NCBI RefSeq assembly: GCF_003334305.1
Contig: NZ_QOWS01000004.1
DNA length: 64,000 nt
Direction: 5' to 3' (one strand)
From: Escherichia coli
GTDB taxonomy: Bacteria > Pseudomonadota > Gammaproteobacteria > Enterobacterales > Enterobacteriaceae
The first letter of the stretch is position 1. Each line of letters begins with the position of its first letter. Shown here in pieces: positions 1 to 37,830 of the stretch. The notes under the pieces were generated by a model that was given only the letters and a program-made list of their open reading frames with translations, searched no databases and was not told the origin of the DNA. A program made the translations under genes and the position numbers.

Positions 1-193
1 TCTTCAGTAACGAACACTTCCCCGTGTTGGATTGGGCTCATAGTACCTGGATCGACGTTGATGTACGGATCCAGTTTCATGATGGTCACATTGAGGCCAC
101 GGGCTTCAAGAATGGCTGCGAGGGAGGCTGCGGCAATGCCTTTACCCAGAGAGGATACGACCCCGCCGGTCACAAAAATATAGTTCGTTGTCA
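1..193 (-). CDS. pyrG: CTP synthase, N-terminal ~64 codons only (rest of gene lies beyond window start)
   Basis: Reverse complement of 1-193 translates [64 protein letters not shown], the conserved CTP synthase N-terminus; ATG is the reverse complement of 191-193. Not in ORF track because it is truncated by the window edge. Confidence 0.85.
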
Positions 194-421
194 TGCTGAA
201 CCTGAGAAGTTAGGTTGAAAAGACGATGGAATAACCAGGACGGGAAAGCAGTATACCCGAACATGACCTGTGCCACAAACTTTCATTATCCCTCCTCTTC
301 GCCAGCGCACTATTGAAATCAGGAGTGAGAAAATAGCCCCTTTGGGGTAAATGTTTTTGACGCAAATCAAGCGCTTGTCATTTAAAAAATGACACAAATG
401 GCGCTTGACCGCGTAATTCCC

Positions 422-1213
422 TTAGAGATCAATTTCCTGCCGTTTTACCTGTTGCCAGACTTCTTCCATTGTTTCGAGGTCAACACCTGTCATTTCCAGT
501 CCACGCGCGGCAACAATACGCTCCACTTCGCGAAAACGACGCTCAAATTTTTCGTTCGCTTTTTGCAATGCGATTTCCGCTTTTGTCCCTAAATGACGAG
601 CCAGATTGACCGTGGCAAACAGCAGGTCCCCCATTTCCTCCTCCAGTTTAGCCTGGTCGACAACAGCCTGCCGCGCTTCGTACATCACCTCGTCGATCTC
701 TTCGTAGACTTTATCGACTACCGGACCAAGCGTCGTCCAATCGAAGCCAACGTTGGCGCAACGTTTCTGGATTTTTTGCGCACGCATTAAAGCCGGTAAA
801 CTACGAGGAATATCGTCCAGCGCCGAATGCTGCGCTTTCTGCGCGCGCTCTTCGGTTTTGATTTGCTCCCAACGGGCAAGCACTTCACTACTGTTTTCGG
901 CAGAACTGTCAGCAAAAACATGCGGATGGCGACGCTCTAATTTATCGCTAATCGCAGCGCAAATATCATTAAAGTCAAAGCGCCCTTCTTCCTGAGCCAT
1001 TTGCGCGTAAAACACCACCTGGAACAGCAGATCGCCGAGTTCACCGCGCAGATCGTCAAAATCTTCACGGGCGATGGCGTCCAGCACTTCGTAGGTTTCT
1101 TCAAGGGTGTAAGGCGCAATGGTGGCAAATGTCTGCTCTTTATCCCACGGGCAGCCGTTTTCCGGATCGCGCAGGCGCTGCATAATAGTGAGCAAACGGT
1201 CGATTTGATTCAT
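422..1213 (-). CDS. mazG: Nucleoside triphosphate pyrophosphohydrolase MazG
   Basis: 263-aa ORF beginning MNQIDRLLTIMQRLRDPENGCPWDKEQTF, recognised as E. coli MazG; sits immediately downstream of mazEF on the same strand. Confidence 0.95.
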   Translation of the reverse strand: MNQIDRLLTIMQRLRDPENGCPWDKEQTFATIAPYTLEETYEVLDAIAREDFDDLRGELGDLLFQVVFYAQMAQEEGRFDFNDICAAISDKLERRHPHVFADSSAENSSEVLARWEQIKTEERAQKAQHSALDDIPRSLPALMRAQKIQKRCANVGFDWTTLGPVVDKVYEEIDEVMYEARQAVVDQAKLEEEMGDLLFATVNLARHLGTKAEIALQKANEKFERRFREVERIVAARGLEMTGVDLETMEEVWQQVKRQEIDL

Positions 1214-1283
1214 TAGAATGTCCTGAAAATTGCGGGTCTGTCAGGTGGAAACCTGTGACCAGAATAGAAGTGAGTTAGTAACA

Positions 1284-1619
1284 CTACCCAATCAGTACGT
1301 TAATTTTGGCTTTAATGAGTTGTAATTCCTCTGGGACAACCGTTCCTTTCTTCGTTGCTCCTCTTGCCCGCCAGGCGATACTTTTTACCTGATCAGCTAA
1401 CGCTACGCCATCACGTTCCTGACCGGATAAAACAACTTCGAACGGATATCCTTTTGATTGCGTTGTACAAGGAACACACAGACACATACCTGTTTTGTTG
1501 TTGTACATGAAAGGACTCAGGACAACAGCTGGACGATGTCCAGCTTGCTCGCTACCTTTTGTCGGGTCAAAATCAACACAAATCAGATCGCCCATATCGG
1601 GTACGTATCGGCTTACCAT
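1284..1619 (-). CDS. mazF: Type II toxin MazF (mRNA interferase, ACA-specific endoribonuclease)
   Basis: 111-aa [16 protein letters not shown]...INVLIG, recognised as E. coli MazF; start overlaps mazE stop by 1 nt. Confidence 0.96.
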   Translation of the reverse strand: MVSRYVPDMGDLICVDFDPTKGSEQAGHRPAVVLSPFMYNNKTGMCLCVPCTTQSKGYPFEVVLSGQERDGVALADQVKSIAWRARGATKKGTVVPEELQLIKAKINVLIG

Positions 1620-1867
1620 TACCAGACTTCCTTATCTTTCGGCTCTCCCCAGTCGATATTCTCGTGGAGGTTTTCCGGCGTGATGTCGTTGACCAGTTCA
1701 GCAAGCGTAAATACGGGCTCTTTACGCACTGGCTCAATAATTAATTTGCCATCCACCAGGTCAATCTTCACTTCATCATCAATATTCAGATTGAGCGCCT
1801 GCATTAACGTAGCCGGGATCCGCACCGCCGGTGAATTTCCCCAACGCTTTACGCTACTGTGGATCAT
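1619..1867 (-). CDS. mazE: Type II antitoxin MazE
   Basis: 82-aa [50 protein letters not shown]..., recognised as E. coli MazE; directly upstream of mazF. Confidence 0.96.
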
Positions 1868-1944
1868 AACCCTTTCCTCAAACCGCTATCATATGTAGAT
1901 ACAGTATATATCAATCTACATTGTAGATACGAGCAAATTTCTGC

Positions 1945-4179
1945 CTAACTCCCGTGCAACCGACGCGCGTCGATAACATCCGGCACCTGGTTGAGTTTAC
2001 CCAGCACGCGGCCCAGCACCTGCAGGTTGTAAATCTCAATGGTCATGTCGATGGTTGCCAGTTGCTGTTTGGTGTCGCTACGGCTGGCAACACCAAGCAC
2101 GTTCACCTTCTCGTTGGCGAGAATGGTCGTGATATCACGTAACAACCCACTACGATCATTAGCCACCACGCGGACCACCAGCGAATATCCGGCGGAGTAG
2201 CTCTCACCCCATACCGCGTCAACAATGCGTTCTGGCGCATGGGAGCGCAGTTCCGCCAGTTGTTCGCAATCGGCGCGGTGTACTGAAATACCGCGCCCCT
2301 GGGTAATGAAGCCGACAATCTCATCTCCAGGAATCGGCTGGCAGCAGCGCGCGATGTGGTGCATCAGGTTGCCAACACCTTCGACCACCACGCGACCGTT
2401 ATCTTTACTGCGGTTTTGCGGCGTGTAGCTTTTTTGCTGAAGTTGCTTCAGCGCGGCGGCGTCCTGCTCTTCGGCACTCGGCTTATTAAATTGCGATTGC
2501 AGGAAGTTCACCATCTGATTGAGACGGATATCCCCGCCACCAATCGCCGCCAGCAACTCGTCGACATCATTAAAGTTGTAACGCGGCAGCAGATGTTTTT
2601 CTGCTTCTTTCAGGCTGATCCCCAGATGTTCCAGCTCGTCGTCAAGGATTTGCCGCCCAGCCAGAATGTTTTTGTCACGGTCCTGTTTACGGAACCAGGC
2701 GTGAATTTTCGAACGCCCACGGCTGGTTGTGACGTAACCGAGGTTTGGGTTTAACCAGTCACGGCTGGGGTTCGGCTGTTTCTGGGTGATAATTTCAATC
2801 TGGTCGCCCATCTGCAGCTGGTAGGTGAACGGCACAATGCGCCCGCCAATTTTTGCCCCGATGCAGCGGTGTCCGACATCACTGTGGATGTGGTAAGCGA
2901 AGTCCAGCGGCGTTGATCCCGCAGGCAAATCAACGACATCACCTTTCGGCGTAAAGACATACACCCGGTCGTCAAAGACCTGGCTGCGTACTTCGTCGAG
3001 CATTTCGCCGGAATCAGCCATCTCTTCCTGCCACGCAATCAGTTTACGCAGCCAGGCAATCCGGTCTTCATGTCCCGAACGTGCGCCGCCAGCTGCCGCG
3101 CCCTCTTTATATTTCCAGTGCGCAGCAACACCCAACTCTGCATCTTCATGCATCTGTTTGGTGCGGATTTGGATCTCAACGGTTTTGCCACCTGGCCCCA
3201 GAACCACGGTATGAATAGACTGATAACCGTTTGGTTTCGGGTTAGCGACATAATCGTCAAACTCATCCGGCAGGTGGCGATAGTGAGTGTGCACTATCCC
3301 CAGTGCGGCATAACAATCCTGTAAACGCTCGGCGACAATACGTACCGCACGCACATCAAACAGCTCATCGAAGGCGAGGTTCTTTTTCTGCATTTTGCGC
3401 CAGATGCTGTAGATGTGTTTCGGTCGACCATACACTTCAGCTTTAACGCCTTCAGCTTTCATCTCAGCGCGCAGATGGCCGACAAACTCTTCGATATAGT
3501 GTTCGCGGTCGAGACGGCGTTCATGCAGCAGTTTTGCGATGCGTTTGTATTCGGTCGGGTGGAGATAACGGAAGCAGTAATCTTCCAGCTCCCATTTCAG
3601 TTGCCCAATCCCAAGACGGTTCGCCAACGGCGCGTAGATATTGGTGCACTCTTTTGCCGCCAGTACGCGTTCATCTTCCGGCGCATCTTTTACTTCGCGC
3701 AGATGAGCAATACGCTCCGCCAGTTTGATGACCACGCAGCGAAAATCATCGACCATCGCCAATAACATCCGGCGAACGTTATCGACCTGTTCGGAGGAAA
3801 CAGAATCAGTGTGCGTCGCTTTCAGCTGGCGGATCGCCGCCATATCACGCACGCCGTGAATAAGGTTAACAACCGACTTACCGACGCTCTCACGCAGCAC
3901 ATCTTCGCTAACTACGTTGGCATCAGCCAGAGGGAACAGCAGCGCCGCCCGCAGCGTGTCAATGTCCATACTTAATGTCGAGAGGATCTCCACCATCTCA
4001 ACACCACGCCACAATAACAGACTGGCATCCGGATGCCCCTGCGTCTGTTGCAGACAATACGCCCAGGTTTCGGCTAAGCACTCACACGACTTCTGGCTGG
4101 TAATACCCAGACTTGCGATCCATTTTTCCGGATCAAATTCACCAGCCTTATTGATATGTGCACTTCTTACCGCAACCAT
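1945..4179 (-). CDS. relA: GTP pyrophosphokinase RelA ((p)ppGpp synthetase I)
   Basis: 744-aa ORF MVAVRSAHINKAGEFDPEKWIASLG..., full-length match to my memory of E. coli RelA. Confidence 0.97.
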   Translation of the reverse strand: MVAVRSAHINKAGEFDPEKWIASLGITSQKSCECLAETWAYCLQQTQGHPDASLLLWRGVEMVEILSTLSMDIDTLRAALLFPLADANVVSEDVLRESVGKSVVNLIHGVRDMAAIRQLKATHTDSVSSEQVDNVRRMLLAMVDDFRCVVIKLAERIAHLREVKDAPEDERVLAAKECTNIYAPLANRLGIGQLKWELEDYCFRYLHPTEYKRIAKLLHERRLDREHYIEEFVGHLRAEMKAEGVKAEVYGRPKHIYSIWRKMQKKNLAFDELFDVRAVRIVAERLQDCYAALGIVHTHYRHLPDEFDDYVANPKPNGYQSIHTVVLGPGGKTVEIQIRTKQMHEDAELGVAAHWKYKEGAAAGGARSGHEDRIAWLRKLIAWQEEMADSGEMLDEVRSQVFDDRVYVFTPKGDVVDLPAGSTPLDFAYHIHSDVGHRCIGAKIGGRIVPFTYQLQMGDQIEIITQKQPNPSRDWLNPNLGYVTTSRGRSKIHAWFRKQDRDKNILAGRQILDDELEHLGISLKEAEKHLLPRYNFNDVDELLAAIGGGDIRLNQMVNFLQSQFNKPSAEEQDAAALKQLQQKSYTPQNRSKDNGRVVVEGVGNLMHHIARCCQPIPGDEIVGFITQGRGISVHRADCEQLAELRSHAPERIVDAVWGESYSAGYSLVVRVVANDRSGLLRDITTILANEKVNVLGVASRSDTKQQLATIDMTIEIYNLQVLGRVLGKLNQVPDVIDARRLHGS

Positions 4180-4226
4180 CGTCCTCTCCTTTAGGGACCA
4201 GACCTGCCGAAATCGGCAAATCGTAA

Positions 4227-5528
4227 CTATTTAACGCGCGAGAAAAGTACCATCGATTCCAGATGTCCCGTGTGTGGGAACATATCCAGCATCGCCAGTC
4301 GCGCAATGGTATATCCTGCTTTTAATAACGCTTCGCTATCCCGAGCCAGCGTTGCAGGATTACAGGATACATAAACTATACGAATAGGTTCCAGTTTTAT
4401 AATTTGCTGTATAACACCTGCGGCACCTGCTCGCGCGGGGTCCAGCAACACTTTATCGAAGCCGTTTTTCGCCCACGGCTGCTTTGTGACATCTTCTTCA
4501 AGATTTTCATGATAAAACGTCACATTCTGTAAACCATTAAGACGCGCATTCTGCTGGCCTTTTTCCACCAGCGCCGGAACACCTTCTACACCCACCACAC
4601 TGGCAGCTTGTGTCGCCAATGGCAGTGTAAAGTTGCCCATACCGCAGAACAGATCCAGTACGCGATCTTCAGGTTGCACATCCAGCCATTCCAACGCACG
4701 CGCTACCATTTTTTGGTTCACACCCGCATTGACCTGAATAAAATCGCGCGGGCTAAAAGTTAAGCGCAACCCGTTTGAGTCATACCAGGGCATCTCACCA
4801 GAGACGGTTTCGAGTATCTCACTATCGGGGGCGAGATACAGATCCAGGCCTTCAGAATGCGAAAAGCGTTCCAGTTTTTCGCGATCAGCCGAACTTAGCG
4901 GTGCGGTATGGCGCAAAATCATCAGCGTGCCGCTGGTTGCCTGTACCAGTTCAACATGACCAAGATGGCGTATAGCTTGTAAGCTGCCCAGGCATGCCCT
5001 GACTTTGGGCAGCAATGCTTCAAGTTGGGGCACTAAAATGGGGCATTGTTTAACGTCGACAATGTCACTGGAGCCCGCTTTGCGAAAGCCCATCTGAAGT
5101 TGCTGTGTTTTCGGTAAGTAGTTCAAACTTAAACGCGCGCGACGGCGATAGCCCCAGGGAACATCGGCGATCACTTCAGAGACTTCGTGTTTCATTAATC
5201 GGGCGAGTGCCGCACTTTTGCTTCGCTGCTGTAAATCCACGCTGGCGTGTTGTTGCTGACAGCCGCCGCATACGCCAAAATGAGGACAGCGTGGCGTTTC
5301 GCGTTCCGGGCTATCGCTTAACCGGCGCACGACTTTAGCGCGGGCGTACTGTTTTTTATCTTCAGTAACAGTAACTTCCGCGTTTTCCTGTGGCAGTAAT
5401 CCAGGAATAAATAACGCTTTGCCGTTATGTCGCGCCACGCCCTGACCAAAAGAGTCGAGGTCGTTGACTGAAACGGTTATGATCTGACGCGTCGTCGTGC
5501 GTCGTTTTGCAGAGTAGAATTGCGCCAT
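4227..5528 (-). CDS. rlmD: 23S rRNA (uracil1939-C5)-methyltransferase RlmD (RumA)
   Basis: 433-aa [40 protein letters not shown]... with the [11 protein letters not shown] iron-sulfur motif; directly upstream of relA on the same strand. Confidence 0.95.
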
Positions 5529-5584: not shown

Positions 5585-8341
5585 ATGACCAACTACAGCC
5601 TGCGCGCACGCATGATGATTCTGATCCTGGCACCGACCGTCCTTATTGGTTTATTGCTGAGTATCTTTTTCGTCGTGCATCGCTATAACGACTTGCAGCG
5701 TCAACTGGAAGATGCCGGTGCCAGCATTATTGAGCCGCTTGCAGTTTCTACTGAATATGGCATGAGCCTGCAAAATCGCGAATCTATCGGTCAGTTAATA
5801 AGCGTACTGCATCGTCGCCATTCCGATATTGTTCGCGCGATTTCGGTTTATGATGAAAATAACCGACTCTTTGTCACCTCCAATTTTCATCTTGATCCCT
5901 CATCAATGCAGCTCGGCAGCAACGTGCCGTTTCCTCGCCAGCTCACTGTCACTCGTGACGGCGATATTATGATCCTCCGCACGCCGATTATTTCTGAGAG
6001 TTACTCCCCCGACGAATCGCCCAGTAGCGATGCCAAAAATAGTCAAAATATGTTGGGATATATTGCGCTTGAGCTGGATCTTAAATCGGTTCGCTTGCAG
6101 CAATATAAAGAGATCTTTATTTCCAGCGTGATGATGCTGTTTTGTATCGGTATTGCGCTTATTTTTGGCTGGCGCTTAATGCGCGATGTAACCGGTCCGA
6201 TTCGCAACATGGTGAATACCGTCGACCGCATCCGTCGCGGGCAACTCGACAGCCGGGTGGAAGGATTTATGCTCGGCGAGCTGGATATGCTGAAAAACGG
6301 TATCAACTCGATGGCAATGTCGCTGGCTGCTTATCACGAAGAGATGCAGCACAATATCGACCAGGCGACGTCCGATCTGCGTGAAACGCTGGAGCAGATG
6401 GAAATTCAGAACGTTGAGTTAGATCTGGCGAAAAAGCGCGCCCAGGAAGCGGCGCGTATTAAATCCGAGTTTCTGGCAAATATGTCACACGAGCTGCGTA
6501 CACCACTGAATGGTGTTATTGGCTTTACCCGCCTGACGCTGAAAACAGAATTAACACCAACGCAGCGCGATCACCTGAATACGATTGAACGTTCGGCAAA
6601 TAATTTGCTGGCAATTATTAATGATGTTCTCGACTTCTCGAAACTGGAAGCAGGTAAGCTGATTCTGGAAAGTATTCCATTCCCACTACGCAGCACGCTG
6701 GATGAAGTCGTTACTCTGCTGGCACATTCTTCTCACGATAAAGGGTTGGAACTGACGCTCAATATTAAAAGCGACGTGCCTGATAACGTGATCGGCGACC
6801 CACTGCGATTACAGCAAATCATCACTAACCTGGTGGGGAATGCAATTAAATTCACCGAGAATGGCAACATTGATATTCTGGTAGAAAAACGTGCGCTGAG
6901 TAATACCAAAGTGCAGATTGAAGTGCAGATTCGGGATACCGGCATTGGTATTCCTGAACGCGATCAATCGCGCTTATTCCAGGCCTTCCGACAGGCTGAT
7001 GCCAGTATTTCCCGCCGTCATGGTGGCACCGGTCTGGGGCTGGTGATTACACAAAAACTGGTTAATGAAATGGGCGGCGATATTTCGTTCCATAGCCAGC
7101 CGAATCGCGGTTCAACTTTCTGGTTCCACATTAATCTCGATCTGAACCCGAACATTATTATCGAAGGGCCATCCACCCAGTGCCTCGCCGGTAAGCGCCT
7201 GGCCTATGTCGAACCAAACTCCGCAGCAGCGCAATGCACGCTGGATATTTTAAGTGAAACGCCGCTGGAAGTGGTTTATAGCCCAACGTTCTCCGCGCTG
7301 CCTCCCGCGCATTACGACATGATGTTGTTAGGCATCGCGGTGACCTTCCGCGAGCCGCTAACAATGCAACATGAGCGATTAGCGAAAGCGGTATCGATGA
7401 CCGATTTCCTGATGCTGGCACTTCCTTGCCATGCACAAGTCAATGCAGAAAAACTCAAGCAAGATGGTATCGGCGCGTGTCTGCTGAAACCATTAACACC
7501 TACGCGCCTGTTGCCTGCCCTGACGGAATTTTGTCATCACAAACAAAACACGCTTTTGCCTGTAACCGATGAAAGCAAGCTGGCAATGACAGTCATGGCA
7601 GTTGATGACAACCCCGCTAACCTGAAACTTATCGGCGCATTGCTGGAAGATATGGTGCAACATGTGGAACTTTGCGATAGCGGGCATCAGGCGGTTGAAC
7701 GGGCGAAACAGATGCCGTTCGATTTGATCTTAATGGATATTCAAATGCCTGACATGGATGGCATTCGGGCCTGCGAGCTCATCCACCAGCTCCCCCATCA
7801 GCAACAAACGCCGGTTATCGCGGTAACGGCGCATGCAATGGCCGGGCAAAAAGAGAAGCTGCTTGGCGCAGGGATGAGCGATTATCTGGCGAAACCGATT
7901 GAAGAAGAGCGATTGCATAATTTGTTGTTGCGCTACAAGCCTGGCAGCGGTATTTCCTCTCGCGTCGTGACGCCCGAAGTCAACGAAATTGTGGTGAACC
8001 CGAATGCGACCCTCGACTGGCAACTGGCACTACGCCAGGCAGCAGGAAAAACCGATTTAGCGCGCGATATGCTGCAAATGTTACTCGATTTCCTGCCTGA
8101 AGTTCGCAACAAAGTTGAGGAACAGCTGGTTGGAGAAAACCCGGAAGGCCTGGTTGATTTGATTCATAAACTGCATGGCAGTTGCGGCTATAGCGGTGTG
8201 CCGCGTATGAAGAATCTCTGCCAACTGATCGAACAACAGCTACGTAGCGGTACTAAAGAAGAAGATTTGGAGCCGGAGCTGCTGGAACTGTTGGACGAGA
8301 TGGATAATGTAGCGCGCGAAGCCAGCAAAATTCTCGGGTAA
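5585..8341 (+). CDS. barA: Hybrid sensor histidine kinase BarA (tripartite HK-REC-HPt)
   Basis: 918-aa [34 protein letters not shown]... with an H-box ([17 protein letters not shown]), a receiver domain ([14 protein letters not shown]) and a C-terminal HPt region. Confidence 0.97.
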
Positions 8342-8414
8342 CGGACGTCTTGTCGAGTAGCAATCGGCTTTTTATGACGCTGGTTTCAGATTGGTGACAA
8401 AGTGCCTGTGTTTA

Positions 8415-8450
8415 TGCCGGATGCGGCGTTAACGCCTTATCCGGCCTACA
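8415..8450. repeat. REP (repetitive extragenic palindrome) unit
   Basis: gccggatgcggcgttaacgccttatccggcctaca is a near-consensus E. coli REP palindrome, lying in the barA/gudD convergent spacer. Confidence 0.8.
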
Positions 8451-8535
8451 AAACCAATTAAATTCAATGAATTAAAAAATGATGTAGACCTGATACATAG
8501 CACAACAGGCTATTTTGCGTTTAGCATCAGTCTCA

Positions 8536-8567
8536 AGCCGGCTCCAGATAGAGCCGGTTTTGGTTTT
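8536..8567 (+). terminator. Rho-independent terminator (plus-strand orientation, downstream of barA)
   Basis: GC stem gccggctc / gagccggt with a 6-nt loop, followed by TTTTGGTTTT on the plus strand. Confidence 0.6.
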
Positions 8568-8572
8568 CTGTC

Positions 8573-9913
8573 TTAACGCACCATGCACGGGCGCTTGTTA
8601 TCGAACGTCCAGCCAGGAATCAGATACTGCATTCCCATCGCATCGTCACGCGCGCCAAGCCCGTGTTTCTGATACAGCTCATGGGCTTTCATCACTTGAT
8701 CCATATCGATTTCTACACCCAGCCCCGGTTTTTCCGGCACCTGAACCAGACCGCCTTTGATCTCAAACGGTTCTTTGGTCAGGCGCTGATTACCTTCCTG
8801 CCAGATCCAGTGCGTATCAATAGCAGTAATTTTACCCGGTGCAGCGGCGGCAACATGGGTAAACATCGCCAGGGAAATATCGAAGTGGTTGTTTGAGTGT
8901 GAACCCCAGGTCAGGCCAAATTCATGGCACATTTGCGCCACACGTACCGAACCTTGCATCGTCCAGAAATGCGGATCCGCCAGCGGGATATCAACGGATT
9001 GCAGGGAGAGCGTATGGCCCATCTGCCGCCAGTCGGTGGCGATCATATTGGTTGCGGTCGGCAGGCCAGTTGCGCGACGGAACTCTGCCATCACTTCACG
9101 CCCGGAGAAACCTTGCTCCGCACCACACGGATCTTCTGCATAAGCCAGCGACCCTTTCAGGTATTTACCAATTTTAATCGCTTCGTTCAGCGACCAGGCA
9201 CCGTTAGGATCGAGCGTAATACGCGCCTGCGGGAAGCGTTGCGCCAGTGCCACAATAGACTCGGCCTCTTCTTCCCCGGCCAGTACACCGCCTTTCAGTT
9301 TGAAATCGTTGAAGCCATATTTTTCATACGCCGCTTCCGCCAGGCGCACCACCGCATCCGGCGTCATCGCTTCTTCATGACGCAGGCGATACCAGTCGCA
9401 TGAGTCATCCGACTGGCTTTGATACGGCAGCGGTGTGGCTTTGCGATCACCGACGAAGAACAGATAACCGAGCATTTCGACTTCGCTACGCTGTTGACCA
9501 TCGCCCAGCAGGGATGCCACGTTTACCCCCAGATGCTGCCCCAGCAGATCCAGCATTGCCGCTTCTATCCCGGTAACTACATGAATAGTGGTACGCAAAT
9601 CAAATGTCTGCAAACCGCGCCCACCAGCATCACGATCGGCAAAAGTATTACGCACCAGCGTCAGAACGTTTTTGTATTCACCCAGCGTTTTACCTACCAC
9701 CAGCGGAATCGCATCTTCCAGCGTTTTACGGATTTTCTCGCCGCCGGGAATTTCCCCTACGCCAGTGTGACCAGAATTATCTTTGATAATCACAATATTA
9801 CGCGTAAAGAACGGTGCGTGTGCACCACTCAGATTCATCAGCATACTGTCATGACCCGCCACCGGGATGACCTGCATTTCAGTAACAACAGGCGTCGTAA
9901 ATTGAGAACTCAT
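8573..9913 (-). CDS. gudD: D-glucarate dehydratase
   Basis: Enolase-superfamily protein. The ORF track extends to 9937 (MILKKDINM...), but the recognised protein begins [23 protein letters not shown] at the internal ATG (reverse complement of 9911-9913), which also removes the overlap with gudX. Confidence 0.93.
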
Positions 9914-9933
9914 ATTTATGTCCTTTTTCAGAA

Positions 9934-11274
9934 TCAATGACGGCCGAAAACGGGACGTTTACGGTCAAAGGTCCAGCCGGGGATCAGGTACTGCATCGGA
10001 CCTGCGTCGTTACGCGCACCGACAGGCAGACGTTTATAGGCCTCATGTGCCTTTTGTACCTGTTCCCAGTCCAGTTCCACGCCCAGACCGGGCGCATCAG
10101 GAACGGCAATTTTTCCGTTTTTAATCTCCAGCGGATTTTTGGTCAGGCGACAATCGCCCTCCTGCCAAATCCAGTGGGTATCGATAGCGGTAGGATTACC
10201 CGGTGCCGCCGCGCCCACATGGGTAAACATCGCCAGAGAGATATCGAAATGGTTATTAGAATGGCAGCCCCAGGTCAGCCCCCAGTCGTCGCAAAGCTGC
10301 GCCACACGGACTGCACCGGAAAGCGTCCAGAAGTGCGGATCGGCAAGTGGAATATCTACCGCATTGAGCATCACCGCATGACCCATTTCGCGCCAGTTGG
10401 TGGCGATCATGTTAGTCGCGACGGGCAAGCCGGTCGCCCGCCGAAACTCCGCCATCACTTCACGACCGGAGAAACCCTGTTCTGCGCCGCATGGATCTTC
10501 GGCATAGGTAAGAACATCATTCAGCCCTTTGCATAGAGAAATGGCTTCATCAAGTAGCCAGGCACCGTTGGGATCAACGGTAATCCGCGCATCAGGGAAG
10601 CGTTTCTTCAATGCCCGAACAGTGTCGATTTCTTGCTCGCCAGGTAACACCCCGCCCTTAAGTTTGAAATCTTTAAAGCCATAGCGATCCTGTGAGGCTT
10701 CCGCCAGACGCACAACGGCTTCGCTGTTCATCGCTTTCTGATGGCGCAACTGATACCACTCATGGTTGCCCGGCGTATTTTCCAGATAAGGAAGATCGGT
10801 TTTGGTCCGATCACCGATATAAAACAGATAACCGAGGACGGTAATAGTCTCGCGTTGCTTGCCTGGCCCCAACAGTTCGCAGACCGGAACATTCAGCGCC
10901 TTACCTAGCAGGTCAAGCAAGGCGGCTTCCAGCGCCGCCACGGCATTAACGCGCAATTCAAAAGTCCAGGCACCTTTGCCGAAGGTATCAAAATCGGCTG
11001 CCTGATTACCTTTATGCACCTGCTGAACCACTTTATTCAGGCGCGCAACTTCCTGGCCCAGAACCATCGGAATAGCATCGACCAGTGTTTGATAAATCAC
11101 CTCTCCGCCCGGCGCTTCACCAATGCCGGTATGCCCGGCGTTATCGGTGAGTACCACAATATTGCGGGTGAAATATGCGTTATGTGCCCCACCAATATTA
11201 AGCAACATGCTATCGTGCCCGGCGACCGGAATGACTTTCATATCAGTAATAACAGGACTGGATTGTGTCGTCAT
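9934..11274 (-). CDS. gudX: Glucarate dehydratase-related protein GudX (enolase superfamily paralogue)
   Basis: 446-aa [44 protein letters not shown]..., clearly paralogous to the adjacent gudD product. Confidence 0.93.
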
Positions 11275-11275
11275 C

Positions 11276-12628
11276 TTATTGCCCCGCGACAGGTTTCAGC
11301 TCGATACGCTTGATATCGCCCACCAGCACCAGGTAGCTCAGTACCGCGATTAAGGCATGAACACCAACATAAATCAGCGCCCCATTAAAGGAGCCAGTCG
11401 TGCCAACGATATAACCAATTGCGATTGGCGTGACGATGCCAGAAATGTTACCGAACATGTTGAACAGGCCACCGGAAAGACCGCTGATCTCTTTTGGCGC
11501 GGTATCTGCCATTACTGCCCAACCCAGCGCCCCGATGCCCTTACCGAAGAAGGCCAGCGCCATAAAGCCGATGATCATCCACTCAACGTTGACGTAGTTG
11601 CAGAACACCATCACCATCGACAGCAACATGCCCATTACGATCGGTGTTTTACGCGCAATGTTCAGCGATCCCGTGCGGCGCATCAGCCAGTCGGAAATAA
11701 TCCCACCCAGCACACCGCCGATAAAACCGCAAACCGCCGGAACGGAAGCCACAAAGCCCGCTTTCAGAATCGACATCCCACGCGCCTGCACCAGATAAAC
11801 CGGAAACCAGGTAATGAAAAAGTAAGTCAGGGCGTTGATACAGTACTGACCGATATAAACGCCGATCATCATCCGTGACCCGAGCAGTTGTTTGATCTGC
11901 CCCCACTTCACGCTGAACGGCACTTTAACTTTGGTGTTTTGCTGATCCATATTGATCAGCGCGCCACCCGCGGCGATGTACTCCAGCTCTTTCTGATTTA
12001 CCCCCGGATGTTGATTTGGCTCGTGGATGACTTTCAACCAGATAAAGCTGATGACAATCCCCAGACCGCCCATAAAGAAGAAGACGTGTGACCAGCCCAC
12101 TTCATGCGTCAGCCAGCCCATAATCGGCGCGAAGATCACCGTTGCGAAGTATTGAGCGGAGTTAAAAATCGACACCGCCGTTCCCCTTTCCTGCGCCGGA
12201 AACCAGGCCGCAACAATGCGACTGTTGCCGGGGAAAGATGGCGCTTCAGCAAGCCCGACCAGGAAGCGCAGAGTAAACAGGGCAACGATAATGCCGAATC
12301 CACTAAAGATATCGACGAAGCCTTGCAGCAAGGTAAACATCGACCAGATAAAGATCGACCAGAAGTAGACGCGTTTTGAACCAAAACGATCCAGCAACCA
12401 ACCACCAGGGATCTGCCCGATAACATAAGCCCATGAGAAGGCAGAGAACACATAGCCCATTCCCACGGGATCAAGGCCGATATCTTTGGCCATTTCCGAA
12501 CCGGCAATAGAAAGCGTAGCGCGGTCGCCGTAGTTGAAGGATGTGACGATAAACAACATCACCACTATCCAGTAACGAGCATTCGTGCGTTTTTCCACAC
12601 TGCTCGCAGCCTGACTTAAAGAACTCAT
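11276..12628 (-). CDS. gudP: MFS transporter for D-glucarate/galactarate
   Basis: 450-aa hydrophobic [43 protein letters not shown]..., with multiple predicted TM helices; first gene of the gudPXD operon. Confidence 0.93.
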
Positions 12629-13062
12629 TGTTGCACTCCTGAAAATTCGCGTTAGCCACGCTCACTCTGGACTGCGACATAGCCAGGAAATCAGAGGTGA
12701 CGTAGGGTGTTTTTTGCCGTTTTTATAGGTCGTTCGCCGAATACGGCGCGTGTTTATATCTGGCAATAGCAGTATAAAAAGCGCGCCATAGCGGCTCACC
12801 GTGCAACAACACAACATTAATGCGTTCAATGAGGCCCGATTTTGGCATTAGCCCTGGACGGTGGAATCCACTTCACGGAAATGAAAACAAGAACAAGAAA
12901 GGAAGGGTTAAAACGAAGAAATAAAGAAGAGTATGAAATGGATCGCTTGACTCCAGGCAAACGCCAGTAAAAATCCGCGCTATGAAGCAGTTTTTACTGG
13001 CATTTGCCTGAAAATATTCGATTCAGCACCGCTAAAACGACATTTACCGCTCGCTGAACATA

Positions 13063-13512
13063 TCAGGACAACAGCGTGCCCCACTGTTCGACCCACGGAT
13101 TTGATTCCGTTTCCGGTTCCGGGTTCTCACTGGCGTCAATCAACAGCATTTCGCCAACCCGCTGAGCGCTCTGTTCCTGCAACAAGGCATCGAACTGTTT
13201 GCCGCCATTGCAGAAATTTACATAACTGCTGTCACCGAGCGCAATCACGCCATAACGCAGATTCGGCTGGAAGCCCAGACTATCTTTGATTCCCTGAAAG
13301 AGCGGCACAATGCTATCAGGAAGGTCGCCCTGCCCGGTCGTGGACGTAACCACCAGAACATACTTATCCTGATAGGGCAGCCAGTCGCTTAATTCAGGAT
13401 CTTCAAATACCGTTGCTTTGTGGCCCTGTGCGGTCAGAATTGCTTCTGCTTCTTCCGCCACTAACAGCGAATTTCCGTACATGGTGCCGACAAAAATACC
13501 AATTTCCGCCAT
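13063..13512 (-). CDS. yqcA: Short-chain flavodoxin YqcA
   Basis: 149-aa [44 protein letters not shown]... with a flavodoxin-like FMN-binding N-terminus. Confidence 0.9.
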
Positions 13513-13529
13513 ACCGTTTTCTCCCTGGA

Positions 13530-14312
13530 TTAGGAACTTATCTCTCCATCCTGACCCGATGGCGCACTGAACTCAACCCTTTCATTTTCAGGAAGCAGAC
13601 CGCGCCAGCCAAATTGTGATAACGCCTGCATCCAGGTGTCGTCCAGGCCCGCGTGAATAGTCAGCGGCTCGCCAGTAAAAGGATGCGTCAATGACAACTG
13701 ACTGGCATGTAGCATTAACCGCTGGAGGCCAAAATGCTCAGCACCGCTGCGATTCTGGCGTAAATCGCCATGTTTGCTATCGCCAATAATCGGATGACGC
13801 AAATGGGCAAGATGTCGGCGAAGCTGATGTTTGCGTCCGGTTTTCGGCTCCAGTTCCACCAGGCCGTAGCGCGTGGTCGGGTAACGTCCGGTCGCTACCG
13901 GCATTTCTACGGTCGCCAGACCGCGATAATGCGTCACTGCTGGCTGCGAGCCTTTATCTTCGCGGGCAAATTTATCAGCGATTTTGTCCAGTTCTTCCAC
14001 CAGTGGATAATCCAGAACTGCTTCTTCCATCAACCAGCCGCGCACAATCGCATGGTAACGTTTCTGGATTTGGTGCTGTTCAAACTGTTGTGCCAGCAGC
14101 CGTCCGGCCTCGCTGGATAATCCCATCAACAACACACCAGAAGTGGGTCGGTCCAGACGATGAGCGGTAAAAACGTGCTGGCCAATCTGATCACGCACGG
14201 TTTGCATGACCACTACTTTCTCGTCGCGATCCAGCCAGCTGCGGTGAACCAGCCAGCCGGAGGGTTTATTTACCGCAACCAGCCATTCATCCTGATAGAG
14301 TATTTCCAGCAT
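13530..14312 (-). CDS. truC: tRNA pseudouridine(65) synthase TruC
   Basis: 260-aa [28 protein letters not shown]... with the RluA-family catalytic motif [12 protein letters not shown]. Confidence 0.93.
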
Positions 14313-14641
14313 TAGCTCGCATCATCCGCAAAAAGAGCATCCAGTTTTTCCAGCTCAGCCAGAATAAGCGCGCGTTGCGGATGGTCCGTCGCCAGCGCCA
14401 TTTCATAATAGGGTGCAACGGCAAAAGCGCCCGGTAACGGCTGTTTGTTATCTAACAAATCGTGCATTCGCGGGATCAGCACCCACTGCAACCACTCCAG
14501 TGGTTCCATGGTGTCCATAAAGAACGGTTGGGTACTATTAAATTGATGCGGCTGGGGTTCATCGTTTCGCCAGTGCTGATGTTCACGCAGTAACGCTTCA
14601 AGCGCCTGCAACTGGAGACGAACGCGGTCATGAGTGGTCAT
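14312..14641 (-). CDS. yqcC: Conserved protein YqcC (DUF446), function unknown
   Basis: 109-aa ORF MTTHDRVRLQLQALEALLREHQHWRNDEPQ...; stop overlaps truC start (ATGA), suggesting translational coupling. Confidence 0.88.
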   Translation of the reverse strand: MTTHDRVRLQLQALEALLREHQHWRNDEPQPHQFNSTQPFFMDTMEPLEWLQWVLIPRMHDLLDNKQPLPGAFAVAPYYEMALATDHPQRALILAELEKLDALFADDAS

Positions 14642-14683: not shown

Positions 14684-15052
14684 AATAAAAAAAGGGAGCA
14701 CTGTATTCACAGCGCTCCCGGTTCGTTTCGCAGCATTCCAGCTACTTTTGTTGCTCCCTGCTCATCCTTGACAACTTTTCCTCTGGCCTTGCGGCCAATC
14801 GTTCATCCTGAACTATTGCTTCCTGCTCACACCACCCCGATGTGATACTTCATCCTGAAGTGTCCCTGGCCTTCCTGACCCACCGAATCATCCTGACCGG
14901 TTCTCATTCTCCATCCTGGAGGTGTCCTTTAACGCGTCCTGCGTCATCCTCTTCGCTTCATCCAGAAGCCTTTCCCTGAAACACCATCCTGGTGTGTCCT
15001 GCAGAAGTGTCATCATCCTGATGTTCACTTCGTTGTCTGACTCCCTGTCGAC
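14684..15052 (-). ncRNA. csrB: CsrB small RNA (CsrA-sequestering sRNA)
   Basis: No long ORF. The plus strand carries at least 8 exact CATCCTG heptamers (CAGGATG on the minus strand) plus about 10 further TCCTG/GGA variants spaced ~15-25 nt apart. Minus-strand 5' end GTCGACAGGGAGTCAGACAACGAAG; 3' end is a GC hairpin (gggagcactgtattcacagcgctccc) followed by a U-run. Confidence 0.93.
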
Positions 15053-15225
15053 GAAGATAGAATCGTCTTTTTCGCGAAGTCTTACAAGGCGCTTACAGAC
15101 AATGCCTTAAGGAAAATTTCATATGAAAGTTAAGAATTAACAATCAACATTTTGATTTTAAATGAAAATAACGATTCTTATCTTTTTAAGTATTCGCTTA
15201 TTTCCTGGCGATCTCCTACAGAGTC

Positions 15226-15243
15226 TGTAAGAGATCTCTCACA
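15226..15243. promoter_or_regulatory. UvrY/GacA-type inverted repeat upstream of csrB
   Basis: tgtaagagatctctcaca is an 18-bp near-perfect palindrome, ~175-190 bp upstream of the csrB 5' end on the minus strand; it matches the response-regulator box described for csrB-family promoters. Confidence 0.65.
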
Positions 15244-15262: not shown

Positions 15263-15808
15263 TTACAGAAGAGGCTTAAGTTGATTAAGGAATTCCGCAA
15301 GATTTGAGGCTAAATGCGTCCGTTTACGTGTTCCCAGCGTCTCTTTGCACACTTCACCGGAGAGATTACACACCGAGATGACCTCTAACTCTTCTTCCAG
15401 CGTCGCGATAAATAGCGTGGGCGGCAGTTTTAGCCTTTTCTGAGTCACCAGATGACCAATCAGATTTTCCTGCACCCGACGGAAGTCGTCTTCACTCCAG
15501 GTTTGCAGCAATGTCAGTTTGATATCGCCAAACTGCGCGTGCATATCCCCGGCAAACTGAGTCGTATAAAAGGTATGAATTGTGGGTTGTATCACAATAT
15601 CAAAAGCGCGTTCAACCGCGTTTACATTTTGTTCCCCGGTAAACGGCTGGGGTTGCCAGTATACGGCATCTTCGGTAGTTGAAATAATGCACGGTGAAGG
15701 AACACCGTACAGTTCCTCACTTAACGGCCAGCTTTTATGCTCTTCATGCCACGCATCGCAGTAGCGTGCAGTAAAATCTTTCAGGGCTTGTGCGGTCAAA
15801 TCGTCCAC
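15263..15808 (-). CDS. syd: SecY-interacting protein Syd
   Basis: 181-aa [43 protein letters not shown]..., recognised as E. coli Syd. Confidence 0.92.
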
Positions 15809-15875: not shown

Positions 15876-16724
15876 ATGTCTTCTTATGCAAACCATCAGG
15901 CACTTGCGGGCCTGACTCTTGGAAAATCAACCGATTACCGGGATACCTATGACGCCAGCCTACTGCAAGGCGTTCCACGCAGCCTGAATCGCGACCCGCT
16001 GGGTCTGAAAGCGGATAACCTGCCTTTTCACGGTACGGATATCTGGACGCTGTATGAACTTTCCTGGCTGAATGCGAAAGGTTTGCCGCAGGTCGCTGTC
16101 GGTCATGTTGAACTTGATTACACCAGCGTAAATCTGATTGAGTCGAAGAGTTTTAAGCTCTATCTCAACAGTTTTAACCAGACGCGTTTTAATAACTGGG
16201 ATGAGGTGCGCCAGACGCTGGAGCGCGACTTAAGCACTTGCGCCCAGGGTAAGGTTAGCGTGGCGTTATATCGTCTTGATGAACTGGAAGGCCAGCCGAT
16301 AGGTCATTTCAATGGCACCTGCATTGATGACCAGGATATCACTATCGATAACTATGAATTCACTACTGACTATCTGGAGAATGCCACCAGCGGTGAAAAA
16401 GTAGTGGAAGAGACGCTTGTCAGCCACCTGCTGAAATCAAACTGCCTGATCACCCATCAACCAGATTGGGGTTCGATCCAAATTCAGTATCGTGGACGCC
16501 AAATTGACAGAGAAAAACTGCTGCGTTACCTGGTCTCATTCCGTCATCACAACGAGTTCCACGAACAGTGCGTGGAACGCATCTTTAATGACCTGTTACG
16601 CTTCTGCCAGCCAGAGAAATTAAGCGTTTACGCACGTTATACCCGTCGTGGCGGTCTGGACATTAACCCGTGGCGCAGTAATAGCGATTTTGTCCCATCG
16701 ACCACAAGACTGGTTCGGCAATAA
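15876..16724 (+). CDS. queF: NADPH-dependent 7-cyano-7-deazaguanine (preQ0) reductase QueF
   Basis: 282-aa [38 protein letters not shown]... containing the QueF motif E(S/L)K(S/A)FKLYL ([12 protein letters not shown]). Confidence 0.94.
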
Positions 16725-16835
16725 ATTTTTTCTCAATTTTGCGTGCTGGATTCACGCAGAAGGTTGTGAAAGGTCATCAGGCAGGGCTATTGTAATCAAA
16801 GGGAATGACGATATTCGTCCCATAAGGAGTTTTTC

Positions 16836-18200
16836 TTGATTACACATATTAGCCCGCTTGGCTCCATGGATATGTTGTCGCAGCTGGAAGTGGATATGCT
16901 TAAACGCACCGCCAGCAGCGACCTCTATCAACTGTTTCGCAACTGTTCACTTGCCGTACTGAACTCCGGTAGTTTGACCGATAACAGCAAAGAATTGCTG
17001 TCTCGTTTTGAAAATTTCGATATTAACGTCCTGCGCCGTGAACGCGGCGTAAAGCTGGAACTGATTAATCCCCCGGAAGAGGCTTTTGTCGATGGGCGAA
17101 TTATTCGCGCTTTGCAGGCCAACTTGTTCGCGGTCCTGCGTGACATTCTCTTCGTTTACGGGCAAATCCATAACACCGTTCGTTTTCCCAACCTGAATCT
17201 CGACAACTCCGTCCACATCACTAACCTGGTCTTTTCCATCTTGCGTAACGCTCGCGCGCTGCATGTGGGTGAAGCGCCAAATATGGTGGTCTGCTGGGGC
17301 GGTCACTCAATTAACGAAAACGAGTATTTGTATGCCCGTCGCGTCGGAAACCAGCTGGGCCTGCGTGAGCTGAATATCTGCACCGGCTGTGGTCCGGGAG
17401 CGATGGAAGCGCCGATGAAAGGTGCTGCGGTCGGACACGCGCAGCAGCGTTACAAAGACAGTCGTTTTATTGGTATGACAGAGCCGTCGATTATCGCCGC
17501 TGAACCGCCTAACCCGCTGGTCAACGAATTGATCATCATGCCAGATATCGAAAAACGTCTGGAAGCGTTTGTCCGTATCGCTCACGGTATCATTATCTTC
17601 CCTGGCGGTGTGGGTACGGCAGAAGAGTTGCTGTATTTGCTGGGAATTTTAATGAACCCGGCCAACAAAGATCAGGTTTTACCATTGATCCTCACCGGCC
17701 CGAAAGAGAGCGCCGACTACTTCCGCGTACTGGACGAGTTTGTCGTGCATACGCTGGGTGAAAACGCGCGCCGCCATTACCGCATCATCATTGATGACGC
17801 CGCTGAAGTCGCTCGTCAGATGAAAAAATCGATGCCGCTGGTGAAAGAAAATCGCCGCGACACAGGCGATGCCTACAGCTTTAACTGGTCAATGCGCATT
17901 GCGCCAGATTTGCAAATGCCGTTTGAGCCGTCTCACGAGAATATGGCTAATCTGAAGCTTTACCCGGATCAACCCGTTGAAGTGCTAGCTGCCGACCTGC
18001 GCCGTGCGTTCTCCGGTATTGTGGCGGGTAACGTAAAAGAAGTCGGTATTCGCGCCATTGAAGAGTTTGGTCCTTACAAAATCAACGGCGATAAAGAGAT
18101 TATGCGTCGTATGGACGACCTGCTACAGGGTTTTGTTGCCCAGCATCGTATGAAGTTGCCAGGCTCAGCCTACATCCCTTGCTACGAAATCTGCACGTAA
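16836..18200 (+). CDS. ppnN: Pyrimidine/purine nucleotide 5'-monophosphate nucleosidase PpnN (YgdH, LOG family)
   Basis: 454-aa [25 protein letters not shown]... with the LOG-family motif [10 protein letters not shown]. Confidence 0.93.
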
Positions 18201-20104: not shown

Positions 20105-21472
20105 ATGATTAGCGTATTCGATATTTTCAAAATCGGCATTGGCCCTTCCAGTTCTCATACCGTTGGACCAATGAAAGCGGGTAAACAATTTACCGACGAT
20201 CTGATTGCCCGTAACCTGCTTAAAGACGTGACCCGCGTGGTGGTTGACGTGTACGGCTCGCTCTCTCTGACCGGTAAAGGCCACCACACTGATATCGCCA
20301 TTATTATGGGCCTGGCGGGTAACCTGCCGGATACCGTGGATATCGATTCCATCCCCGGTTTTATTCAGGATGTGAATACTCATGGTCGCCTGATGCTGGC
20401 AAACGGTCAGCATGAAGTGGAGTTCCCGGTTGATCAGTGCATGAACTTCCATGCCGACAACCTTTCTCTGCATGAAAACGGTATGCGCATTACCGCACTG
20501 GCGGGCGATAAAGTCATTTACAGCCAGACTTACTACTCTATCGGCGGTGGCTTTATCGTTGATGAAGAACATTTTGGCCAGCAGGATAGCGCACCGGTTG
20601 AAGTTCCTTATCCGTACAGTTCAGCAGCCGATCTGCAAAAACATTGTCAGGAAACCGGGCTGTCACTCTCTGGCCTGATGATGAAAAACGAGCTGGCGCT
20701 GCACAGCAAAGAAGAGCTGGAACAGCACCTGGCGAACGTCTGGGAAGTCATGCGCGGCGGTATTGAGCGCGGTATTTCTACCGAAGGCGTGTTGCCTGGC
20801 AAACTGCGCGTACCACGCCGTGCTGCGGCACTACGCCGGATGCTGGTCAGCCAGGATAAAACCACCACTGACCCGATGGCGGTTGTTGACTGGATCAACA
20901 TGTTTGCACTGGCAGTGAACGAAGAGAACGCCGCTGGCGGTCGCGTGGTGACTGCGCCGACTAACGGTGCGTGCGGGATTATCCCGGCTGTGCTGGCGTA
21001 CTACGATAAGTTTATCCGCGAAGTGAACGCTAACTCACTGGCTCGTTACCTGCTGGTAGCCAGTGCCATTGGTTCTCTTTATAAGATGAACGCGTCAATT
21101 TCTGGTGCTGAAGTCGGCTGCCAGGGTGAAGTTGGTGTGGCGTGCTCAATGGCGGCGGCTGGTCTGGCAGAACTGTTAGGTGCAAGCCCGGCGCAGGTGT
21201 GCATCGCGGCGGAAATCGCCATGGAGCACAACCTCGGTCTGACGTGTGACCCGGTCGCCGGACAGGTCCAGGTGCCATGCATCGAGCGTAACGCCATTGC
21301 GGCAGTAAAAGCGGTGAACGCCGCACGTATGGCGCTACGCCGTACCAGCGAGCCGCGCGTCTGCCTCGATAAAGTTATCGAAACCATGTACGAAACAGGT
21401 AAAGATATGAACGCCAAGTACCGCGAAACCTCTCGCGGCGGCCTGGCAATGAAGATCGTTGCCTGCGATTAA
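20105..21472 (+). CDS. sdaB: L-serine dehydratase 2 (L-serine deaminase, Fe-S)
   Basis: 455-aa ORF MISVFDIFKIGIGPSSSHTVGPMKAGKQFTDDL..., recognised as E. coli SdaB. Confidence 0.96.
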   Translation: MISVFDIFKIGIGPSSSHTVGPMKAGKQFTDDLIARNLLKDVTRVVVDVYGSLSLTGKGHHTDIAIIMGLAGNLPDTVDIDSIPGFIQDVNTHGRLMLANGQHEVEFPVDQCMNFHADNLSLHENGMRITALAGDKVIYSQTYYSIGGGFIVDEEHFGQQDSAPVEVPYPYSSAADLQKHCQETGLSLSGLMMKNELALHSKEELEQHLANVWEVMRGGIERGISTEGVLPGKLRVPRRAAALRRMLVSQDKTTTDPMAVVDWINMFALAVNEENAAGGRVVTAPTNGACGIIPAVLAYYDKFIREVNANSLARYLLVASAIGSLYKMNASISGAEVGCQGEVGVACSMAAAGLAELLGASPAQVCIAAEIAMEHNLGLTCDPVAGQVQVPCIERNAIAAVKAVNAARMALRRTSEPRVCLDKVIETMYETGKDMNAKYRETSRGGLAMKIVACD

Positions 21473-33224: not shown

Positions 33225-33430
33225 ACTTCCTGAGCCGGAACGAAAAGTTTTATCGGAATGCGTGTTCTGGTGAACTTTTGGCTTACGGTTGTGATGTTGT
33301 GTTGTTGTGTTTGCAATTGGTCTGCGATTCAGACCATGGTAGCAAAGCTACCTTTTTTCACTTCCTGTACATTTACCCTGTCTGTCCATAGTGATTAATG
33401 TAGCACCGCCTAATTGCGGTGCTTTTTTTT
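33225..33430 (+). ncRNA. gcvB: GcvB small regulatory RNA
   Basis: No ORF. Begins ACTTCCTGAGCCGGAACG, carries the GU-rich seed tract GTTGTGATGTTGTGTTGTTGTGTTTGC, and ends in the intrinsic terminator gcaccgcctaattgcggtgc + T8. It is divergent from gcvA, the canonical arrangement. Confidence 0.93.

Positions 33431-37753: not shown

Positions 37754-37830
<77 letters not shown>

Follow-up and report, generated by a model that had tools for sequence, protein, structure and literature searches.

The 64-kb stretch of Escherichia coli DNA analysed here (64,000 nucleotides, hereafter the window) harbors a small RNA gene, its upstream control region and the gene of the sensor kinase at the head of the controlling pathway. 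In the annotation, the gene order is relA-rlmD-barA(+)-gudD-gudX-gudP-yqcA-truC-yqcC(-)-csrB(-)-syd(-)-queF(+). The csrB gene (369 nt, 14684–15052, minus strand; b4408 in the K-12 annotation) is recognized by the Rfam model RF00018 (CsrB/RsmB) at 15043..14684 (-), over model positions 1–356 of 356, with 380.4 bits against a threshold of 71 (E = 1e-110). Its intrinsic terminator lies at 14719–14694. Upstream of csrB follows syd, which encodes the SecY-interacting protein (15263–15808, minus strand).

The feature of interest occupies the intergenic region between these two genes. At 15226–15243 the window reads TGTAAGAGATCTCTCACA, which on the csrB strand (minus) is TGTGAGAGATCTCTTACA, an inverted repeat (IR) of the UvrY (SirA/GacA) type. 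The assignment is based on its sequence, on a published footprint and on conservation in csrB promoters. In the direction of syd transcription, the IR, or box, begins 20 bp past the stop codon of that gene. Counted from the csrB start at 15052, it extends from −174 to −191, and its centre falls at −182.5. The first-pass annotation had placed the box about 180 bp upstream of csrB, and this distance holds for the 369-nt csrB of the K-12 annotation. The 1.3 kb around the box matched all 5426 complete E. coli genomes searched, many of them at 100% identity, and the csrB upstream region is single-copy. One of these 5426 matches sits on a record classed as a plasmid, which may be a mis-assigned replicon.

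The hybrid sensor kinase BarA, which phosphorylates UvrY, is encoded at 5585–8341 (plus strand), where the first-pass annotation had located it; the 918-aa open reading frame is 100% identical to the annotated BarA protein WP_000186450.1. Two genes upstream of barA lies relA (relA-rlmD-barA, window 1–5528). RelA/ppGpp and DksA have been examined as additional inputs to csrB and csrC expression (PMC4682653), and the window therefore holds two genes of csrB control besides csrB itself. Elsewhere, Rfam searches detected the GcvB small RNA (33225–33430, 199 bits) and a tRNA gene (37754–37827).

The barA–csrB neighbourhood

From the barA stop codon, the distance is 6.3 kb to the 3′ end of csrB and 6.9 kb to the box, with gudD, gudX, gudP, yqcA, truC and yqcC in between. 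Sensor and RNA had been described as linked across gud and yqc genes, and the annotated gene order bears this out. The glucarate operon gudD-gudX-gudP (8573–12628, minus strand) is a variable insert between barA and yqcA, and yqcA-truC-yqcC (13063–14641, minus strand) are conserved genes between barA and csrB. The response regulator gene uvrY, said to be missing from the window, is indeed missing: the sole tblastn match in the window is the receiver domain of BarA itself (29% identity). In K-12, uvrY stands beside uvrC at 1.99 Mb, 0.9 Mb from csrB.

This neighbourhood was compared in 71 BarA-anchored loci from species-representative genomes, in 35 of which csrB was located by nhmmer. All 33 Enterobacteriaceae loci with enough flanking sequence share the order barA(+), gudDXP (complete, in part or not at all), yqcA(-), truC(-), yqcC(-), csrB(-) and syd(-). 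The gap from the barA stop codon to csrB is 1.67–8.9 kb in the Enterobacteriaceae loci and 1.67–1.73 kb where gud is absent; in E. albertii, which has no gud genes, it is 1.7 kb. The barA-yqcA interval (8342–13062 in the window; L003, L020–L031 and L052 in the comparison set) contains gudDXP in complete form, gudD-gudX, or none of these genes. In some Citrobacter and Cedecea, the interval reaches 9 kb through other inserts. Among the Erwiniaceae, Pantoea stewartii has the same barA-csrB order with a gap of 9.5 kb. The loci of Erwinia, Mixta and other Pantoea, taken with a 10-kb flank, end at yqcA, and csrB would lie beyond this point if they resemble P. stewartii.

Six genera with BarA are free of the linkage, namely Yersinia, Rahnella, Rouxiella, Edwardsiella, Moritella and Alcanivorax. 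Within 10 kb of their barA we found neither csrB or any other Csr/Rsm RNA, nor yqcA, truC, yqcC or syd. In Yersinia and in Erwinia carotovora, csrB stays beside syd (PMC1488887). The rlmD-barA adjacency is kept far more widely than that of barA and csrB, and it reaches Moritella and Alcanivorax. The linkage is the juxtaposition, in one clade, of two old blocks, rlmD-barA and csrB-syd. The variable spacer and the loss of linkage in other Enterobacterales families argue for synteny rather than functional coupling, and the evidence points to a synteny inherited in the Enterobacteriaceae and in at least some Erwiniaceae.

Alternatively, the proximity could be functional and kept by selection, for instance through co-inheritance or a shared chromosomal domain or context. 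The linkage persists in the 33 Enterobacteriaceae loci and in P. stewartii despite repeated remodelling of the barA-yqcA interval, the gap shrinks to its minimum where gud is absent, and in 5413 of the 5426 E. coli genomes the first 25 kb of the window are still largely together (at least 80% matched). Nevertheless, we regard selection for proximity as unlikely. The rlmD-barA and csrB-syd-queF adjacencies are kept equally well, so that barA-csrB is ordinary core-genome synteny. Furthermore, the six genera named above carry BarA and lack the linkage, with Yersinia keeping csrB beside syd instead. A functional cluster would imply linkage wherever the system exists or co-transcription, and neither was found for barA and csrB, which are convergent and separated by six unrelated genes. 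The intermediary UvrY is itself encoded 0.9 Mb away, and a second target, csrC, lies outside the region between yihA and yihI (PMC1488887). The UvrY mechanism does not need barA and csrB to be close, as UvrY acts in trans from that distance. Literature searches retrieved no earlier discussion of the barA-csrB proximity; Kulkarni et al. 2006 discuss the neighbourhood of csrB for syd only (PMC1488887).

The UvrY box and the wider csrB operator

Genome-wide binding of UvrY/SirA has been mapped by ChIP-exo, with csrB and csrC as the strongest targets by far (Zere et al. 2015, PLoS One 10:e0145035, PMC4682653). In E. coli, the phospho-UvrY site at csrB is the same IR, centred at −183/−182 and defined by ChIP-exo and DNase I footprinting (PMC4682653). 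The footprint at csrB covers this upstream site alone, and deletion of barA lowers UvrY binding to csrB in vivo about 35-fold as measured by ChIP-PCR (PMC4682653). As early as 2006, csrB genes had been classified with the help of a conserved 18-bp site in their upstream regions (Kulkarni et al., PMC1488887). The first-pass annotation called the box UvrY-type and suggested a comparison with published UvrY/GacA footprints and a binding assay. The comparison gives exact identity: the box equals, letter for letter, the IR printed by Zere et al., with the same centre and with the third half-site TGTAGGAGA also present, and binding in vivo and in vitro is already on record from their experiments. 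Over the 67 nt surrounding the box, the window and K-12 MG1655 are 100% identical. Martinez et al. 2014 are said to have carried out a mutational analysis of the Salmonella csrB IR.

The box thus very probably serves the csrB promoter as its upstream activating site, bound by phospho-UvrY; no evidence contradicting this assignment was found in our analysis. It is an already known UvrY operator, carried here by a further E. coli strain. Finding it again adds no new biology, because comparative analysis had predicted the site by 2006 and its nucleotide-resolution map dates from 2015.

The box had been presented as an 18-bp palindrome. Position and length stand, and the symmetry is imperfect: eight of the nine pairs are complementary, and the reverse complement TGTGAGAGATCTCTTACA differs from TGTAAGAGATCTCTCACA at two positions. 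The palindrome is also part of a larger operator. A third half-site, TGTAGGAGA (15212–15220, minus strand; 15210–15220 or −158 to −168 with the following TC), lies 5 bp promoter-proximal of the IR. As TGTRRGAGATC, this half-site is conserved at a spacing of 4–5 bp in nearly all of the 36 csrB promoters compared (see below). Together with the promoter-proximal half of the box it forms a second near-perfect palindrome, GATCTCCTACAG-AGT-CTGTAAGAGATC (15210–15236), and the operator therefore consists of three half-sites in the arrangement -> <- N5 ->.

The operator contains two GATC (Dam) sites, at 15210–15213 and 15233–15236. A role for Dam methylation was considered; the GATC sites are lost in 4 of the 36 promoters and are missing from the csrC and Pseudomonas boxes. 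A literature search on Dam methylation of the csrB operator gave no relevant report.

Between the operator and the promoter, an IHF-consensus match, AATCAAAATGTTG, occupies 15145–15157 (minus strand, −93 to −105), with an overlapping plus-strand match at 15142–15154. Its specified positions (ATCA, TT) are conserved across csrB promoters and the N4 positions are not; the strict consensus is found at equal offset in only about 11 of the 36. Zere et al. describe a putative IHF site in the interval that separates the box from the csrB promoter (PMC4682653). Loss of IHF lowers CsrB about 10-fold, and only if uvrY is present (PMC4682653). An IHF site and ihfA dependence of the Salmonella csrB are credited by Zere et al. 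to Martinez et al. 2014 (J Bacteriol 196:325; ref. 18 in PMC4682653).

The core promoter is less conspicuous. The likely −35 hexamer TTGTAA (15082–15087, minus strand, −35 to −30) stands within the conserved block CTTGTAAGAC, and the likely −10 hexamer GATTCT (15059–15064, minus strand, −12 to −7) within the conserved block GATTCTAT. Both assignments are likely, judging from the conserved blocks and from the spacing of 17 bp between the two hexamers. A sigma-70 promoter scan called no strong promoter for csrB, which fits an activator-dependent promoter. A second 18-bp near-palindrome, AAATTTCATATGAAAGTT, lies at 15114–15131 (−62 to −79), 95 bp from the box, with the IHF site on one side and the −35 hexamer on the other; its conservation is merely average and it may have arisen by chance.

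Two TGTAAG motifs resembling half-sites lie at 15082–15098 (CTGTAAGCGCCTTGTAAGAC), within the −35 region and immediately upstream of it. The pair falls inside the promoter-proximal ChIP-exo crosslinking zone. Conservation is high for the proximal motif, which overlaps the −35 hexamer, and limited to Escherichia and Citrobacter for the distal one. According to Zere et al., the IR is not preserved in the promoter-proximal csrB region, and the ChIP-exo signal found there has no matching footprint (PMC4682653).

Conservation and other readings of the palindrome

The conservation analysis covers 36 csrB upstream regions, comprising the window and its relatives from about 20 enterobacterial genera (both csrB copies of L028 are included and the E. 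coli locus L001 is left out). The box is identical in 27 of these regions and recognizable in all 36. Within the 330 nt upstream of csrB, no other stretch of 18 nt is conserved as well as the box, whose mean column identity of 0.97, compared with 0.61 overall, exceeds even that of the coding end of syd. The outer TGT and ACA triplets are invariant, and the 12 nt preceding the box and the 4–5-nt spacer following it vary freely. The centre of the box falls between −180.5 and −186.5. The apparent exception, L011 at −232.5, is explained by an internal csrB duplication which shifts the inferred 5′ end. The distance separating the IR and the conserved −10 block GATTCTAT is 177–181 bp in 33 of the 36 promoters, and the DNA from −150 to −100 is poorly conserved. 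Such a constant distance across about 20 genera supports a looping mechanism which depends on geometry. The overall pattern is that expected of a protein-binding operator in a looped promoter of this kind.

In none of the 36 promoters is the box a perfect palindrome; 7–8 of the nine pairs match, though one transition would suffice for full symmetry. The G4/T15 asymmetry is flipped in L022, L043, L045 and one of the L028 copies. The imperfection may have no effect, or the half-sites may have to be unequal. Imperfect palindrome and third half-site together might encode an asymmetric UvrY oligomer required for activation.

Two loci deserve mention for csrB itself. L028, an uncultured Enterobacteriaceae metagenome-assembled genome (CALYPF010000002.1), carries two tandem csrB copies between yqcC and syd (15982–17022). 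They lie at 16336–15982 and 17022–16673 (nhmmer E ~1e-39 each), and a separate UvrY-type box precedes each of them at about −183. Duplication of csrB has been described in Vibrio. In L011 (Pseudocitrobacter faecalis), the nhmmer match to csrB is split at 20249–20666 (model 1–98 and 54–368), which indicates an internal duplication of about 45–50 nt in the 5′ part, one that would add CsrA-binding hairpins.

The same palindrome can be read at the RNA level, as a hairpin in the syd 3′ UTR which terminates or stabilizes the syd transcript, with no protein-binding DNA site involved. This reading is in keeping with the position of the box, which on the syd strand follows the stop codon of syd at a distance of 20 nt. 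In the predicted RNA fold, the third half-site pairs with the right half of the box over 12 bp, closed by a loop of 3 nt; the folding energy of the 106-nt region is −25.4 kcal/mol (z = −2.1), and pairing is retained at 8–9 of 9 positions in most species. However, the hairpin is followed by GCCAGGAAAUAAG and not by a U tract, and a terminator scan of the minus strand calls nothing at the box. An intrinsic (rho-independent) terminator, with its G+C-rich stem-loop and immediate U tract, is consequently not found there. Variation in the stem is all single-sided (G-U or mismatch) and includes no compensatory double changes, exactly as a repeated DNA half-site predicts. Furthermore, the flipped asymmetry in the four promoters breaks an RNA pair (A opposite C) and leaves the DNA palindrome unaffected. 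Direct footprinting and ChIP-exo place UvrY at the site (PMC4682653). The hairpin reading was rejected for want of a U tract and of covariation, and its likelihood appears very small.

Palindromy in itself is unremarkable. Zero-spacer 18-mers in which 8 or more of the 9 pairs match number 11 in the window, compared with 8.5 ± 3.0 expected from first-order Markov simulations, and the near-palindrome at 15114–15131 lies only 95 bp off; from such counts the box could be taken for a functionless accident of AT-rich intergenic DNA. The evidence therefore had to rest on the specific motif and on conservation. Allowing up to 3 mismatches, the 18-mer matches nothing in the window except the site itself (0.01 chance matches expected), and the GacA/UvrY pattern TGTRAGN6CTYACA has one mismatch-free match in the 64 kb, at 15226–15243. 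Palindromy alone does not exceed chance; the specific content of the box does. Given strong conservation across about 20 genera with diverged flanks, and the published UvrY footprint (PMC4682653), a chance origin is extremely improbable and was rejected.

The operator of another regulator is equally hard to accept. CRP is the obvious candidate, as the outer pentamers of the box (TGTGA...TTACA) look like the CRP half-sites TGTGA and TCACA. In the CRP consensus, TGTGA-N6-TCACA, the half-sites are 6 bp apart. Those of the box are separated by 8 bp, and the protein crosslinked and footprinted there is UvrY, not CRP (PMC4682653), so that CRP was dismissed as having hardly any likelihood.

Proposed mechanism and comparison with known systems

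With the box read as the UvrY operator, activation of csrB can be pictured as follows. BarA (5585–8341) phosphorylates UvrY, encoded elsewhere beside uvrC. Phospho-UvrY, a regulator of the FixJ/NarL family, binds the IR TGTGAGAGATCTCTTACA at −182.5 and probably uses the adjacent third half-site TGTAGGAGA as well. IHF at about −100 would bend the DNA and thereby allow the far-upstream UvrY complex to reach RNA polymerase at a presumably weak promoter (−35 TTGTAA, −10 GATTCT); the looping geometry is suggested by the constant box-promoter distance. Once transcription is switched on, CsrB sequesters CsrA. UvrY binding in vivo and in vitro, the dependence on barA and the requirement for IHF were established by others. 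Our analysis contributes the identity to the published site, its uniqueness in the window, its conservation and the box-promoter distance. The loop and the polymerase contact are what we infer, with support from the promoter-proximal ChIP-exo signal, for which footprinting gave no counterpart. In a defined in vitro transcription system, UvrY-P and IHF did not lead to csrB expression (PMC4682653). The insufficiency of these two proteins suggests that a further factor is probably missing.

The BarA-UvrY-CsrB pathway acts on the global regulator CsrA and, through it, on carbon metabolism, biofilm, motility and virulence. The csrB box is the strongest single genomic target of UvrY. The additions made here are modest: palindromy alone is non-significant, the box-promoter distance is held, and the barA linkage is restricted to a clade.

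The closest mechanistic parallel is the narG promoter (NarL at −190, IHF at −125, Fnr at −41), where a far-upstream activator of the FixJ/NarL family works through an IHF bend, an analogy drawn by Zere et al. (PMC4682653). Regulator and operator are different from those of csrB. Moreover, unlike for narG, we know of no Fnr-like proximal activator for csrB.

With respect to the motif, the Pseudomonas GacA boxes of rsmX, rsmY and rsmZ (TGTAAGN6CTTACA) are also 18-bp palindromes and share the outer hexamers of the csrB box; they are recognized by GacA, the orthologue of UvrY, and lie upstream of genes for small RNAs which sequester CsrA/RsmA (rsmY UAS TGTAAGCATTCTCTTACA; rsmZ TGTAAGCATTCGCTTACT). 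In contrast to the csrB box, their central six nucleotides are CATTCT instead of AGATCT, no GATC is present, and the small RNAs belong to other Rfam families. The GacA (GrrA) site of Erwinia amylovora csrB, TGTAAGAGATCGCTTGTA, lies 165 nt upstream and shares the left half TGTAAGAGATC. It fits the TGTRAGN6CTYACA family with a degenerate right half, as proposed from sequence analysis in that species, and an IHF site has been reported there as well.

Within E. coli, the csrC site TGTGAGACATTGCCGATA is recognized by the same regulator, has the left half-site TGTGAGA and is also far upstream (crosslinked from −223 to −143; PMC4682653). Its symmetry is much weaker, its consensus is classed as distinct from that of csrB, and csrC lies outside the window. 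The csrC upstream region also differs in that an IHF site was not identified there, and csrC is expressed without need of IHF. The SirA IR of Salmonella csrB, as described in PMC4682653, is an orthologous site in another genus; it has the same 18-nt sequence, a centre at −182/−181 and an IHF site between box and promoter. Finally, the csrB IR of E. coli K-12 (PMC4682653) shares with the window the same 18 nt, the same position and TGTAGGAGA 5 bp downstream, and the two elements do not differ.
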